Sequence record: OL960581
Strand: one strand, 5' to 3'
DNA: 64,000 bases
Source: Escherichia phage vB_EcoM_SA20RB
A program made the position numbers and the translations under genes. The stretch's first letter is position 1. Each line of letters starts with the position of its first letter. The notes beneath the pieces were generated by a model. The model made no database searches. It saw only the letters and a program-made list of their open reading frames with translations, and was not told the origin of the DNA. Of this stretch, positions 6,503 through 60,490 are shown in pieces.

Positions 6503-6532
6503 ATTATACTCTGGTCCCAAGAGTTTGTAAAC
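6503..6532 (-). promoter_or_regulatory. T4-type early promoter
   Basis: plus attata 6503-6508 and gtaaac 6527-6532 (minus GTTTAC..TATAAT). Confidence 0.55.
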
Positions 6533-18006: not shown

Positions 18007-18036
18007 ACTATAACACAACTCTATCAGCTTGTAAAC
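18007..18036 (-). promoter_or_regulatory. T4-type early promoter
   Basis: plus actata 18007-18012, gtaaac 18031-18036. Confidence 0.55.
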
Positions 18037-18494: not shown

Positions 18495-18524
18495 ACTATA
18501 CCATAGTCTTGTCAGCTTGTAAAC
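18495..18524 (-). promoter_or_regulatory. T4-type early promoter
   Basis: plus actata 18495-18500, gtaaac 18519-18524; near-duplicate of promoter at 18007-18036. Confidence 0.55.
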
Positions 18525-51689: not shown

Positions 51690-52658
51690 TTATTTCAGAA
51701 GAGTAACCTCAGCAATTTCTTCCCAACCGTTTTTGTCGGTCATAATAAAGTCAGCAAGATAAAGAGCAGTACGCAGTGAAACATTGCGTAAACGGTTAAC
51801 ATTAACTTTCATCCATGATAATGCTTTATAAGTTTCTTCATCAGAAAGACCGCGCTTTTGCATCATGTCAGTTGAAAGAATAACATCTTCAACCCTGACC
51901 ATAATTTCTTCATTAGTATGAACACCCAAATCCAAATAAACCGAGCGGGACACTAATGCTTGTAAATGTGGAGCAAGTTTAGTACCACGGTCTAATTCGC
52001 GGTCAATGTCAACGTTTGTGATAAAAACAATCGTTCCTTTAAATTCAAACTCACGCTCAATGCCTTTTTCTTCTAAGTAAGAAGACGCAGTGCTCCAGCA
52101 GACTTTACGGGTCTCTCCGGTGTCCAGAGCGGCTTTTAGAAGATTAAGAATGTCCATATCAGAGAAAACATCCACATCATCAATCAAAAGGACAGAATTC
52201 TCTTCACGATTATTCCAAAGCTGCTCATAAAGACCAATACCAGAGATTTTACCATTAATGCTTTTATATTCAATGTATCCAATATCATTTGCTTTATTTA
52301 AAGCTTTATCTAAAGAATACGTTTTACCAATACCTGCTGCACCAGAGATAATCAATGAACGAATATTTCCATTAATAATACCATTCGTCATCATTCCCAT
52401 AACATTAAATCTTTTATTAATGCGGGTTTTCATATCTTCATACGATTCTTTAACTTCTTCAACCTTTACACCATCATATGAAATATCTGATTTGTAAACC
52501 CAAACACCGCGACGTTTACCGTCAATTTCAACAAAAACTTTACCATCTCCTTGTGCATCTACCGGAGCATTATCTGGGAACCATTCGCCTAAGAGCTCAA
52601 AAGTTCCAGAGATTTCTTTACCGAAGTAGATACCCTTATTGATAGTTACAGTTTTCAT
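51690..52658 (-). CDS. P-loop ATPase (AAA+-like, 322 aa)
   Basis: Walker A SGAAGIGKT, Walker B VLLIDDVD; ATG 52656-52658 inside conserved promoter-leader cassette. Confidence 0.6.
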   Translation of the reverse strand: MKTVTINKGIYFGKEISGTFELLGEWFPDNAPVDAQGDGKVFVEIDGKRRGVWVYKSDISYDGVKVEEVKESYEDMKTRINKRFNVMGMMTNGIINGNIRSLIISGAAGIGKTYSLDKALNKANDIGYIEYKSINGKISGIGLYEQLWNNREENSVLLIDDVDVFSDMDILNLLKAALDTGETRKVCWSTASSYLEEKGIEREFEFKGTIVFITNVDIDRELDRGTKLAPHLQALVSRSVYLDLGVHTNEEIMVRVEDVILSTDMMQKRGLSDEETYKALSWMKVNVNRLRNVSLRTALYLADFIMTDKNGWEEIAEVTLLK

Positions 52659-52701
52659 TTTATTCTCCAAATCCGTATCAGTTGATAGTTGTATAGTACC
52701 A
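52652..52701 (-). repeat. 50-bp leader block of repeated early-promoter cassette, copy 2
   Basis: identical to 24191-24240. Confidence 0.7.
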
Positions 52702-52772: not shown

Positions 52773-53783
52773 TCATTTATAATAACTTCGGTGGTTTTCA
52801 AGATAAACCCTCTCAAGGAAGTCATCCCAGAAACCCATGTCTACTTTTTGTTGCATACCGTTCTTAGAAGCTTCAATAGATGCTGCTTCTACTTGATCGA
52901 CCACATCTTCCAAAAACTCTTGAACAGTTTTAAATGGATGTTTACCAAGCTTCACGTCGAGAATAAATGGAGCGTCTTGGAGTGGATAGACTAAGTCACC
53001 AGTTTTGTAAATTTCCAATAGTTGGAGTCCACCACGACAAGCATGACTCAGAGCTTTCCAGTCAATACCCTCATTCGCTTCAGCCTTACGAGCACGTTCA
53101 CCATATTCAGCATCAAGTTTATTCAAAGACTGCTTAAGCTCAATAAGAGAAAGAGTTGTCTGATATTTACGACCCAACACAGTGTAGAACGTTTGTGGGC
53201 CTGTTTTCTCATGATTATGGAATACCCATTCACAGAATTCGTTCTCTGGAAGACGATGCTTAATATCTTCAACTTTAGTTCGACGCTGCTTAATGGAACC
53301 GTCTTCTTGGTAATCAACCCATTGCTCAGGGATTTGATTAACTACTTTCAATACATCACGCAATGCGGCCAAACGAGAACCCTTGACACCATATTTAGAA
53401 GCTTGCTTGCGGACATATCCTAAATAAGATTTCATGTTAGTTGTATAAAAACGAGAACGATTGTCTTGAATAAACTTCCACACATCAGGTAAATCAGATT
53501 TAACCACTAGTTCAGGTGGAGTGTGAAGCATATCTAATGCTACGGTTTCACCATCTGCTGCTAATTTAAAGAAATATTTAAGACTGTATAGTTCATGGTC
53601 AATATCATCTTTAGTGTTTTTAGATGATGTGTTGTTGGTATTTTTACTCATATGCTCTTTAACATTTCCGATAAGAATATCACGAGCAGGAGGAACAAAG
53701 ATTTCTTTAAAATCTACATCAGATTCTGGGGTAGAAGTTCCATAAAGATGACTACCAAAATAACTTTTCATTACTGTTTTCAT
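52773..53783 (-). CDS. putative nucleotidyltransferase (Pol-beta superfamily fold, 336 aa)
   Basis: N-terminal GSHLYGTSTPESDVDF matches minimal NTase motif GS-x(9-13)-D-h-D/E-h. Confidence 0.5.
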   Translation of the reverse strand: MKTVMKSYFGSHLYGTSTPESDVDFKEIFVPPARDILIGNVKEHMSKNTNNTSSKNTKDDIDHELYSLKYFFKLAADGETVALDMLHTPPELVVKSDLPDVWKFIQDNRSRFYTTNMKSYLGYVRKQASKYGVKGSRLAALRDVLKVVNQIPEQWVDYQEDGSIKQRRTKVEDIKHRLPENEFCEWVFHNHEKTGPQTFYTVLGRKYQTTLSLIELKQSLNKLDAEYGERARKAEANEGIDWKALSHACRGGLQLLEIYKTGDLVYPLQDAPFILDVKLGKHPFKTVQEFLEDVVDQVEAASIEASKNGMQQKVDMGFWDDFLERVYLENHRSYYK

Positions 53784-54226
53784 TTAACATCCTTAAATTC
53801 TATCATAGGGCAGATTTTAGATTTACTAGCTTTAAGGTATTCAACGATTACACTATTAGGATGTTCAATACCGTTTTCTTCGTCTTGTTGACGCTTCCAC
53901 GCTCTATCATACCTGACTCCTTCCCATAAACCTGAAATCTTAGCTACAATATATGCTATACCTACTGCAATAACGACAATCGTAGCAAATATCAGTACAC
54001 CAAATACGGTTCCGCCTGCGTGTAGAAGCCAGAATCCTGTAACACCAAATTGACTTAAAATAGCTTGTCCTACCACCCAACTACCTAATAGCCCCGATGT
54101 GCAAATAACACCGATAACTAAGAACGTCCACGCCATTTTCCAGAAATATTTACACAAAGAATTCGGACGCTGCCAGTAAAAGAAATCATGCATACGAACG
54201 TGCCAAGAGTTTTCATTAATAATCAT
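53780..54226 (-). CDS. integral membrane protein (148 aa)
   Basis: three or more hydrophobic helices. Confidence 0.5.
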   Translation of the reverse strand: MIINENSWHVRMHDFFYWQRPNSLCKYFWKMAWTFLVIGVICTSGLLGSWVVGQAILSQFGVTGFWLLHAGGTVFGVLIFATIVVIAVGIAYIVAKISGLWEGVRYDRAWKRQQDEENGIEHPNSVIVEYLKASKSKICPMIEFKDVK

Positions 54227-54228
54227 AA

Positions 54229-54750
54229 TTATCCTTTCATTGAAGGTGTAACAGTTGTTAAATACTTAATCATAGCTTCAGCTTCTGATTTTGATAATGA
54301 AATTTCTCCATTGTTTTGACGAATAGAAATAAAATCCGGATGACGGTCACCACCAGCTTTTAAAATACACATATAAGTATCAGTTTCATCTTCAATATCT
54401 GAAATGATTGAAGCAGTTCCGCATGAATGCGGTTTTTGATAAATCAATGCAGCTTTTCTTCCACCGTTTGACTGTTCATAAACTTTTAACACATCAAACA
54501 AATCACTTCTTTTATCAATAGCTAAGATGTTGTTTTCATCTTCAATGTTAAATCCTTCGGATACTTCATAAAGTGTCACCCATAAATCACCTATATCGAT
54601 AGTAGCATTTCCTTTTCCACGACTTTCAAGAGTATGACAAATTTTCTTGATTTCGTCATAACTCATTTTAATAATATCATCTCCTTGAATAAGGAAGATG
54701 TCATTTTTAAATTCAACACGAATTAAACCGCTTTCACTTGAAATAAACAT
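54229..54750 (-). CDS. hypothetical protein (173 aa), paralog of 54757..55314
   Basis: C-terminus SKSEAEAMIKYLTTVTPSMKG parallels TKDEAIALKTYLDSVIPTMISK. Confidence 0.5.
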   Translation of the reverse strand: MFISSESGLIRVEFKNDIFLIQGDDIIKMSYDEIKKICHTLESRGKGNATIDIGDLWVTLYEVSEGFNIEDENNILAIDKRSDLFDVLKVYEQSNGGRKAALIYQKPHSCGTASIISDIEDETDTYMCILKAGGDRHPDFISIRQNNGEISLSKSEAEAMIKYLTTVTPSMKG

Positions 54751-54756
54751 ATTTCC

Positions 54757-55314
54757 TCACTTTGAAATCATAGTTGGAATGACAGAATCAAGATAAGTCT
54801 TTAGCGCAATGGCTTCGTCTTTGGTAAATGTGACAATATGTGATCGAAAATCATCAATTTGACGAATAGTTAAGACATCTCCCTCTTCATAACATTTTGA
54901 TACATTTAAAAGAGTTTCATCATTCTGATTGCAATCGTTAGTAATAATAGCATTGCAATTTTTGAGCCATTTTAAACTATGTTTTCTTTCATTAGAATAA
55001 TAAAAATATTTAATCTTAGCTATAAAACTATCCCAATGAATAACTGATAAACACATTGACTCACTTTTAATATTAAATCCTGGGCATGAAGAATAAAAAT
55101 GAATTTTGTGCTCATCATTGATGCTTACTATTTTATCAGTATAAGGATATTCAATTTGGGTTAAATGAATGATTTCACTAGGCGTAAAATACAGCATATC
55201 GTCTTCTTGCGTCAAACGATACATGTTATTTACTTTTTCTATAGCCAATTCACCAAAAAGCGGACTAACTTCTAATACTAATCGTTTCATATTGATTCTC
55301 TTCGACTCATTCAC
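54757..55314 (-). CDS. hypothetical protein (185 aa; GTG start or ATG at 55290)
   Basis: GTG 55314 preceded by AGGAG SD. Confidence 0.45.
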   Translation of the reverse strand: MNESKRINMKRLVLEVSPLFGELAIEKVNNMYRLTQEDDMLYFTPSEIIHLTQIEYPYTDKIVSINDEHKIHFYSSCPGFNIKSESMCLSVIHWDSFIAKIKYFYYSNERKHSLKWLKNCNAIITNDCNQNDETLLNVSKCYEEGDVLTIRQIDDFRSHIVTFTKDEAIALKTYLDSVIPTMISK

Positions 55315-55316
55315 AA

Positions 55317-55421
55317 TTACATACTCCTTTGAATAATATCAATAATGTTGTTCACCAGATTATAAGTAAACATCGGGTGATAATATTGAATCATCACATA
55401 CACAACAAACAAAACTTTCAT
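55317..55421 (-). CDS. possible hydrophobic micropeptide (34 aa)
   Basis: ATG 55419-55421 preceded by AAGGAG SD; hand-translated MKVLFVVYVMIQYYHPMFTYNLVNNIIDIIQRSM. Confidence 0.3.
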   Translation of the reverse strand: MKVLFVVYVMIQYYHPMFTYNLVNNIIDIIQRSM

Positions 55422-55449
55422 TCTCTTCTCCTTGGCAGTTGACAAGATT

Positions 55450-55479
55450 ACTATACCATAACCTTGCCAACTTGTAAAC
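55450..55479 (-). promoter_or_regulatory. T4-type early promoter
   Basis: plus actata 55450-55455, gtaaac 55474-55479. Confidence 0.5.
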
Positions 55480-55481
55480 CA

Positions 55482-55637
55482 TTAAATGACGTTTTCAATA
55501 AAATTCTGAAGCTTTGTGTGAGCATCAACCATGATTTTCATTTCTTCCTTTGCGAAAGCTGTACCTCTTTCACGAGAAGAATACTCATAGTCAGAAACTG
55601 CATTAGCATATTCTTCAATTAGCTTCATTAAAAACAT
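55482..55637 (-). CDS. possible small protein (51 aa), not in ORF track
   Basis: hand-translated MFLMKLIEEYANAVSDYEYSSRERGTAFAKEEMKIMVDAHTKLQNFIENVI; no clear SD. Confidence 0.3.
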   Translation of the reverse strand: MFLMKLIEEYANAVSDYEYSSRERGTAFAKEEMKIMVDAHTKLQNFIENVI

Positions 55638-55644
55638 CTGCTTT

Positions 55645-55839
55645 TCAGTTTTCATTATTCCACCTAATCATTTCAAGATATTGAACTAACTTAGCTTTAG
55701 ATTTATCCAAATCCTTTTTAGCTGCTTCTATACCATCGTATGAATATCCTTCACAATGCTCAACTGCCAATTGGTATGAATCTATTTCAATATCACGTGC
55801 TAATTTAATGATTTTTTCAAACTGTTCACGTGTTAGCAT
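55645..55839 (-). CDS. hypothetical protein (64 aa)
   Basis: ATG start. Confidence 0.4.
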   Translation of the reverse strand: MLTREQFEKIIKLARDIEIDSYQLAVEHCEGYSYDGIEAAKKDLDKSKAKLVQYLEMIRWNNEN

Positions 55840-55841
55840 AC

Positions 55842-56045
55842 TTAAACTCTCGTATTATGATCGATAATTTCATCAAGAAACATATCTAAAGCTTCTACAG
55901 CATTATCAACTTTAGCTTCAAGTTCTTCAGCGCCTTTATTTGCAATGCCTGACGAAAACCAAGCAAAGTCACTAAGTTCCTCATCTGCTTTGCGAATTAA
56001 AGCTACCAATTCTTTAATTTTATCTGCTTGTTCGATACTAATCAT
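55842..56045 (-). CDS. hypothetical protein (67 aa)
   Basis: ATG 56043-56045, TAATG overlap with upstream stop (track start GTG 56081). Confidence 0.45.
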   Translation of the reverse strand: MISIEQADKIKELVALIRKADEELSDFAWFSSGIANKGAEELEAKVDNAVEALDMFLDEIIDHNTRV

Positions 56046-56233
56046 TATTCCACCACATATGAAAGAGAGAATATTGCACACGCCATATGAGTTGCAGCTT
56101 CATCACACATATCATAACGTTTCTTAAGAAGTTTTTCAAGTTCTTCACTGGTAACTTCATCCATGTTGACGAAAAAATCACCATTAATGATGACGTAGAT
56201 ATTTCCTTCTTGATTAAGTGCTTCAATTTTCAT
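56045..56233 (-). CDS. hypothetical protein (62 aa)
   Basis: ATG 56231-56233 with AGAGGAG SD inside promoter-leader cassette (track start TTG 56278). Confidence 0.45.
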
Positions 56234-56301: not shown

Positions 56302-56324
56302 AAAAAAGTCTCCCGAAGGAGACT
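56302..56324 (-). terminator. rho-independent terminator (UUCG hairpin + U-run)
   Basis: agtctcc-cgaa-ggagact with plus aaaaa 56302-56306. Confidence 0.6.
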
Positions 56325-60460: not shown

Positions 60461-60490
60461 ATTATACCACAGTCAAGAGGAAAAGTAAAC
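60461..60490 (-). promoter_or_regulatory. T4-type early promoter
   Basis: plus attata 60461-60466, gtaaac 60485-60490. Confidence 0.55.

Follow-up and report, generated by a model that had tools for sequence, protein, structure and literature searches.

What is the role of a 34-codon gene that is placed between an early promoter and two larger, related genes? Such an arrangement is found in the 64,000-nt stretch of the Escherichia phage vB_EcoM_SA20RB genome (OL960581) analyzed here, which is referred to as the window. A preliminary description of this sequence listed three consecutive ORFs (54229..54750, 54757..55314 and 55317..55421), regarded the two larger ones as tandem paralogs sharing a C-terminal motif and proposed that the smallest one encodes a hydrophobic peptide acting either as regulatory leader peptide or as small membrane effector. 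All three ORFs are present at these positions on the minus strand. The smallest one corresponds to mobD.2 of phage T4, and sequence comparison identifies it as a true protein-coding gene under purifying selection.

Identity and gene order of the locus

The window belongs to a Tequatrovirus, and a 2.7-kb stretch around the three ORFs shares 99.5% identity with Escherichia phage Ec_O157kw. This stretch matched 505 T4-like records, in 364 cases over 80% or more of its length. The minus-strand gene order, as derived from annotated relatives and T4, starts with tk, rI.1, rI, rI.-1, mobD.5, mobD.4, mobD.3 and mobD.2a and continues with the promoter, mobD.2, a mobD.1-type gene, a second mobD.1-type gene, a membrane protein gene and nrdC.11. 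Taken as a whole, the locus is best explained, with good probability, as the mobD.2-mobD.1 segment of the hyperplastic early region of T4-like phages (Tequatrovirus).

The mobD.2/mobD.1 cluster is already catalogued and all of its features belong to known, named families. Its value as a discovery is small: the genes have been part of the T4 annotation since completion of the genome, Pfam and PHROG families exist, and the promoter-hairpin represents a published class of elements. In RefSeq these ORFs carry the label 'molybdopterin-guanine dinucleotide biosynthesis protein MobD', which is due to a collision of gene names. Many GenBank records leave mobD.2 unannotated. A literature search found no functional study of mobD.2 or y05I; one report with a promising title (PMC13250531) was discarded, as it deals with T5-like phages and not with the mobD.2/y05I genes.

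Conservation of mobD.2

The mobD.2 gene (55317..55421, minus strand, ATG start) codes for the 34-aa conserved small protein MKVLFVVYVMIQYYHPMFTYNLVNNIIDIIQRSM. The protein matched phrog_3515 over its full length (residues 1-34, E = 2.1e-20), and according to precomputed assignments PF26864 is carried by near-identical proteins, which are 85-97% identical to MobD.2. The full-length profile match and the orthologous position between rI.-1 and nrdC.11 place MobD.2 in this family (PHROG 3515/PF26864), in agreement with the T4 annotation. The perfect SD sequence reported previously was found on the minus strand at 55433..55428; this AAGGAG precedes the ATG at 55421 by 6 nt and is identical in T4. 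An alternative TTG start at 55445, resulting in a 42-aa ORF, was rejected: the SD sequence is positioned for the ATG, homologs from other genera begin at the aligned methionine, and the predicted transcription start coincides with or follows the TTG.

Using tblastn, mobD.2 was detected in 843 phage records, and at least 80% of the peptide was covered in 744 of them. The preliminary description had made its proposal dependent on conservation of the reading frame in related phages. In fact, the protein is conserved in at least six genera of the Tevenvirinae, among them Tequatro-, Mosig-, Karam-, Winkler-, Gelderland- and Jiaodavirus, and further copies come from other Klebsiella phages. The homologs have a length of 32-36 aa. 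Comparison of 11 sequences from at least six genera revealed nine invariant residues besides M1 (Y8, Q12, Y13, P16, F18, T19, Y20, N21 and V23), and the conserved core reads QYxxPxFTYNxV. The residues under selection are located in the middle of the peptide and not at the SD-bearing 3′ end. Between genera (13 sequences, at least six genera), pS values of 0.38-0.96 approach saturation while pN ranges from 0.17 to 0.37, and dN/dS is about 0.1-0.6 wherever dS could be computed. Saturation at synonymous sites together with low dN/dS characterizes mobD.2 as a genuine protein-coding gene.

A homology search of 1.84 billion cluster representatives, for which the TTG-extended 42-aa ORF served as query, returned just five MobD.2 clusters, all of them T4-like. 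According to this search, the family is restricted to T4-like phages, and MobD.2 does not occur as a segment of a larger protein. The sole long match, a 124-aa protein (P0062), was rejected as a candidate domain fusion, since it joins MobD.2 to the ORF upstream by read-through.

A promoter-hairpin precedes mobD.2

The early promoter that had been placed directly in front of the micropeptide ORF was confirmed. On the minus strand, a σ70-type sequence consists of the -35 box TTTACA (55478..55473), a 17-nt spacer with TGn and the -10 box TATAGT (55455..55450). It reached a score of 10/12 and was among the top matches of the scan. This promoter is combined with a 15-bp hairpin (55472..55437), the loop and upper stem of which contain the -10 box. 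The stop codon of mobD.2a (55484..55482) lies 3 nt ahead of the complete cassette (55437..55478).

The predicted free energy of the hairpin is -19.0 kcal/mol (z = -4.1), and none of 200 shuffled sequences folded as well. Mosig-, Winkler- and Gelderlandvirus show the same layout at the homologous position, with unrelated stem sequences. The hairpins of Mosigvirus (-20.6 kcal/mol) and Winklervirus (-19.7 kcal/mol) are of similar stability, whereas that of Gelderlandvirus (S16) is weaker (-14.2 kcal/mol, z = -2.1, 6 of 200 shuffled sequences as good). The nucleotide changes by which the window and a Mosigvirus variant differ from their relatives leave G.U pairing intact on the sense strand. Four further promoters of this kind are located within the window.

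Promoter-early stem-loop (PeSL) cassettes have been described in T4-type phages (Arbiol 2010, PMC2839356; Comeau 2014, PMC4122927) and include a subclass in which the stem overlaps the -10 box (PMC2839356, PMC4122927). The window element follows the published order, which consists of an upstream stop codon, an AT-rich stretch, the promoter, a stem-loop over the -10 box with G.T pairs, the SD sequence and the ATG. Like the published PeSLs it resides in a hyperplastic region with variable gene content, and the genes after mobD.2 do vary among relatives. Its -10 box TATAGT shows one mismatch to the T4/PST consensus TTTACW-N17-TAYWAT (PMC4122927). Two characteristics of a PeSL were found, a promoter with AT-rich region and upstream stop codon as well as a stable stem-loop at the promoter boxes. 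By sequence and predicted fold, the early promoter ahead of mobD.2 is thus a PeSL. Terminator activity has been demonstrated for a PeSL of phage RB49 (PMC2839356, PMC4122927). A U-tract is absent after the stem of the window hairpin, and a terminator role of this element, like recombination between it and other copies, is putative.

mobD.2 and the downstream genes

The proposed function as regulatory leader peptide did not stand up to comparison of the downstream regions. In Tequatrovirus, mobD.2 is followed by a y05I gene; in Mosigvirus, a gene for a 59-aa helical protein precedes the y05I gene, and in Karam- and Jiaodavirus the next gene codes for a DksA-like zinc-finger protein. One Tequatrovirus contig contains two extra genes between mobD.2 and the y05I gene. 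Furthermore, mobD.2 of Karam- and Jiaodavirus is without a promoter ahead, and the ORF overlaps the preceding gene. No attenuator structure was predicted: the stretch of mRNA between the deduced transcription start and the next gene folds no better than shuffled sequences (z = +0.54), and an Rfam scan (E ≤ 1) gave no match above threshold. Because the downstream neighbor varies by genus and no attenuator structure follows, a dedicated leader role, be it of the attenuation type or specific for one gene, is not supported for mobD.2. The gap of 2 nt to the next gene and the residue-specific purifying selection also argue against it.

In the window, the SD sequence of the following gene (AAGGAG, 55329..55324) is part of the last mobD.2 codons, and its GTG start codon lies 2 nt behind the mobD.2 stop codon. 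Translation of mobD.2 therefore probably hands ribosomes to the following gene. Since the mobD.2 stop codon abuts or overlaps the next start codon everywhere, translational coupling is a likely side role of mobD.2, judged from gene arrangement; such adjacency of stop and start codons is the norm in T4-type genomes and does not by itself prove coupling.

Coupling might even be the main purpose of the ORF. The strong SD sequence would then load ribosomes for a weak downstream start, which is GTG in the window, and the peptide itself would be functionless. Apart from the short gap and the SD sequence within the last codons, this explanation agrees with the TAATG or ATGA stop/start overlaps in T4 and other genera. 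Moreover, the MobD.2 protein of T4, the RNA of which is early, was undetected by proteomics (PMC9697503 supplement), and dCas13d knock-downs of T4 mobD.2 and mobD.1 were classified as 'Not Fit', that is without fitness effect, with prior essentiality listed as unknown (PMC11879866 supplement). However, an ORF serving coupling alone needs just its length and its ends. It would not account for nine invariant residues and a dN/dS well below 1 at saturated dS, nor for the location of the conserved residues in the middle of the peptide, away from the SD-bearing 3′ end. In addition, the downstream gene is not conserved and a regulatory RNA structure is absent. We consider it unlikely that MobD.2 is mainly a coupling or leader ORF.

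A short ORF that abuts the next cistron and carries an invariant internal motif with proline and aromatic residues is also reminiscent of ribosome-arrest peptides of the TnaC/SecM kind. In this case QYxxPxFTYN would act in the exit tunnel and thereby influence downstream translation. However, the homologs end 10 to 15 residues behind N21, so that the motif is not at a fixed distance from the stop codon. Furthermore, the genes downstream show no relationship to each other, and the mRNA offers no structure for remodeling by a stalled ribosome. Ribosome arrest is therefore a very improbable function of MobD.2.

Properties of the MobD.2 protein

The characterization of the peptide as hydrophobic is partly correct. 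Strong hydrophobicity is seen in residues 3-11, and the GRAVY value of the entire peptide is 0.69. The highest Kyte-Doolittle mean over 19 residues, however, amounts to 1.03 in the window protein and to 0.69-1.04 across eight homologs, compared to a usual threshold of 1.6. The summed Hessa scale gave +8.2 to +9.3 kcal/mol in all eight homologs. As the values of both scales fall short, a canonical transmembrane helix is unsupported, and this candidate was rejected on the basis of these simple scales, in which all eight homologs remained below the thresholds. A hydrophobic peptide of 34 aa is hard to detect by tryptic mass spectrometry.

AlphaFold2 modeling with a nine-row alignment predicted one helix comprising residues 2-33 (pLDDT 88), which could be the default prediction for a single chain. 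On a helical wheel (100° per residue), seven of the nine invariant residues other than M1 (Y8, Q12, Y13, P16, T19, Y20 and V23) fall into a sector of 140°. This clustering points to a putative binding face.

Several of these properties are compatible with an integral single-pass membrane micro-protein, which would act on a membrane protein of host or phage, for example together with the phrog_944 protein of the operon. At the N terminus of MobD.2, Lys/Arg precedes a run of 9-10 hydrophobic residues; 23-29 consecutive residues are uncharged, and the model consists of a single long helix. A one-sided conserved face, as observed here, also occurs in small transmembrane regulators, and a nearby membrane protein is co-conserved. 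Against such a location stand the low Kyte-Doolittle means and the Hessa sums mentioned above. Moreover, Q, H, N, P, T and Y are frequent in the core, and T4 keeps mobD.2 but is without the phrog_944 gene at this site. We therefore regard membrane integration as quite unlikely. Of the proposed small membrane effector, the effector part can be retained, whereas the membrane part is hypothetical: the hydrophobic run comprises 9-10 residues, and on simple scales the peptide ranks below canonical transmembrane helices. MobD.2 is still best regarded as a small effector protein of some kind. We favor a small helical protein that may dock on a partner or associate peripherally with the membrane.

The tandem y05I paralogs

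The gene following mobD.2 (54757..55314, minus strand) is the ortholog of T4 mobD.1 (UniProt Y05I_BPT4), called 'mobD.1a' in phage ime09. Initiation at GTG 55314, which is located 9 nt downstream of its SD sequence, results in a protein of 185 aa, while the in-frame ATG at 55290, the start annotated in GenBank relatives, results in 177 aa. The next gene (54229..54750, minus strand, ATG start) codes for a diverged tandem paralog of 173 aa, which is called 'mobD.1' in ime09 and is absent from T4. In T4, mobD.1 RNA is early and the MobD.1 protein is early and was detected by mass spectrometry (PMC9697503 supplement).

BLASTP aligned the 173-aa and 185-aa proteins over their whole length (26% identity, 175 columns, E = 3e-8 in a single comparison). 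Both proteins contain the Pfam domains PF24449 (T4_y05I_N) and PF24448 (T4_y05I_C) with E values from 6e-39 to 2e-21. The scores over the full model length were 110.5 and 82.6 bits for the 173-aa protein and 133.1 and 76.7 bits for the 185-aa protein, at gathering cut-offs of 24.9 and 27. Both paralogs also matched phrog_1502. The whole-length alignment together with the Pfam and PHROG matches confirms the paralogy and extends it beyond the C-terminal motif from which it had been deduced. The motif itself is shared in the form K-x-E-A-x-A-[LM]-x-x-Y-L-x-x-V-x-P-[ST]-M, whereas the previously given 'IKYL' fits the 173-aa copy alone. In the structure model it maps to residues 165-184, the final helix of the C-terminal domain. 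On six contigs, a 179-aa protein combines parts of both paralogs, with the junction at a shared GATGAAACT. This chimera indicates that the tandem copies recombine.

The AlphaFold2 model of the 185-aa protein (pLDDT 77, about 90 in the N-terminal domain) displays three β4(5)-α units, two β4-α units forming the N-terminal and one β-α unit forming the C-terminal domain. Comparison of the repeats by hhalign gave a marginal E value of 0.003 for repeats 1 and 3, and the other pairs were not significant. Foldseek searches of BFVD detected family members alone, including stand-alone N- and C-terminal domains. Against the PDB, matches of low TM score and one local match to repeat III of Drosophila Pur-alpha (5fgo) were obtained; the latter comprises 54 residues with an rmsd of 2.1 Å, a target TM score of 0.68 and a probability of 1.0, but an E value of 0.08. 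PUR repeats and Whirly-like modules consist of β4-α units as in the y05I model, but do not match the whole protein (query TM 0.26). Sequence searches with the y05I proteins revealed no similarity to any solved structure in the PDB and no match in NCBIfam or PADLOC. 'Putative transcription factor' is the Pfam label of y05I. Together with the weak PUR-like resemblance of the model, this label is only a lead towards possible nucleic-acid binding and dimerization.

A y05I C-terminal domain, either in a full-length protein or stand-alone (73-82 aa), is encoded within about 0.7 kb downstream of mobD.2 in Tequatro-, Mosig-, Karam-, Jiaoda- and Gelderlandvirus; across coliphage groups, the mobD.2 and y05I families have closely matching record counts. 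This co-occurrence may reflect common descent just as well as a functional link. The invariant helical face of MobD.2 might recognize a target conserved in enterobacteria or else the y05I C-terminal domain with which it is co-conserved; the two together would constitute a small early host-takeover or counter-defence module, the phenotype of which would lie outside the hosts and conditions of laboratory screens. To this specific proposal we assign a low, though not negligible, likelihood.

The following cistron of this densely packed unit (53780..54226, minus strand) codes for a predicted membrane protein of 148 aa, which belongs to phrog_944. It is separated by 2 nt from the upstream gene and overlaps nrdC.11 by 4 nt (ATGA).

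Discussion

The following scenario is conceivable for the expression of the locus. The PeSL would act as a strong early promoter with UP, -35, TGn and -10 elements, from which a polycistronic early mRNA would start at approx. 55443. Transcripts coming from upstream would probably be attenuated or ended by the hairpin just after the mobD.2a stop codon, as experiments with the RB49 PeSL suggest. MobD.2 with its 34 residues would be the first translation product, synthesized from its own AAGGAG sequence. Most likely, it would dock on a partner via its conserved face or associate peripherally with the membrane, and may serve as a dispensable accessory or host-interaction factor. At the same time, its translation probably passes ribosomes to whatever gene follows. 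The next two cistrons encode the diverged paralogs of the T4 Y05I/MobD.1 family. As MobD.2 is among the most strongly conserved functionally unassigned T4 ORFs of less than 40 residues, it is a reasonable target for micro-protein studies.

Comparison with T4 reveals the same basic arrangement with differences in detail. T4 mobD.2 (T4p098, UniProt P39239) has the same length of 34 aa and is 85% identical to the window protein, corresponding to five amino acid differences. Both phages share the SD sequence and its spacing, the promoter-hairpin ahead of the gene and mobD.1 directly downstream. The equivalent hairpin of T4 has a perfect stem (-20.2 kcal/mol). In T4, the mobD.2 stop codon overlaps the ATG of mobD.1 (TAATG), whereas a small indel in the window results in a GTG 2 nt downstream. 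Sequences of the T4 MobD.1 type are about 88-90% identical to the 185-aa protein of the window. Like the window, most Tequatroviruses possess the second, 26% identical y05I copy, whereas T4 contains a single copy followed by mobD. The insertion site of mobD in T4 is nrdC.11/mobD.1 (PMC2988022), and this HNH homing endonuclease gene occupies the place that is taken in the window by the 173-aa paralog and the phrog_944 membrane protein gene.

Additional early promoters with a hairpin

Four additional early promoters of the TTTAC-N17-TATAAT type were found in the window, all of them on the minus strand (60489..60461, 18523..18495, 18035..18007 and 6531..6503). The initial transcribed region of each is complementary to the spacer, which places the -10 box in a hairpin of -17 to -20 kcal/mol. 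These four promoters are additional cassettes of the promoter-early stem-loop (PeSL) type.

Variation around mobD.2 and the y05I paralogs

At the mobD.2a-mobD.2 junction (55484..55419), the ATG of mobD.2 is in the same frame as the stop codon of mobD.2a at a distance of 60 nt, with no intervening stop codon. Exactly such an in-frame joining is displayed by the database protein P0062 (124 aa, Mosigvirus-type), in which MobD.2 is fused to the upstream ORF across the promoter-hairpin. The fusion could be due to loss of the stop codon or to a sequencing error, or could be a hint of read-through. On the other side of mobD.2, a Tequatrovirus contig (IMG/VR UViG_3300045988_128797) carries two additional genes of 61 and 92 aa between mobD.2 and the y05I gene (contig positions 1605..2058), the first of which starts in a TAATG overlap with mobD.2.

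The y05I copies themselves have recombined. A database protein of 179 aa (P0021), present in six contigs, is encoded by a chimeric y05I gene combining the N-terminal part of the 185-aa paralog with the C-terminal part of the 173-aa paralog. Its junction is the 9-nt sequence GATGAAACT, which is common to both paralogs (window positions ~54880..54900 and ~54375..54395). P0021 is the product of a deletion via recombination between the tandem copies.

Upstream mobD genes and their names

Both mobD.3 (55645..55839) and mobD.4 (55842..56081), located on the minus strand, match phrog_653 and thus represent a second tandem paralog pair, coding for small helical proteins. MobD.2a (55482..55655, minus strand; phrog_2758, DUF7438) is weakly related to this group via phrog_4859, labeled 'helicase loader'. 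RefSeq records give the name 'molybdopterin-guanine dinucleotide biosynthesis protein MobD' to several of the mobD.x ORFs (e.g. NC_000866 mobD.4, NC_031103 and NC_025449), apparently through a clash of gene names with mobD of T4, which stands for a mobile HNH endonuclease. In a similar way, some records list nrdC.10 and nrdC.11 as 'thioredoxin'.

Probable borders of transcription units

Directly 3' of rI.-1, a GC-rich hairpin followed by a T-run (56324..56307, minus strand) resembles an intrinsic terminator and forms the border between the rI unit and the unit of mobD.5-mobD.2a, for which a separate promoter-like site is present at 56139..56111. Downstream of the membrane-protein gene and in the same direction lie nrdC.11 (52773..53783, minus strand), which codes for a nucleotidyltransferase-like protein and starts in an ATGA overlap with that gene, and nrdC.10 (51690..52670, minus strand), whose product contains the AAA-type ATPase motif GAAGIGKT. 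In phage JB75, terminators are annotated at the counterpart of the 56324..56307 hairpin and 3' of nrdC.11.
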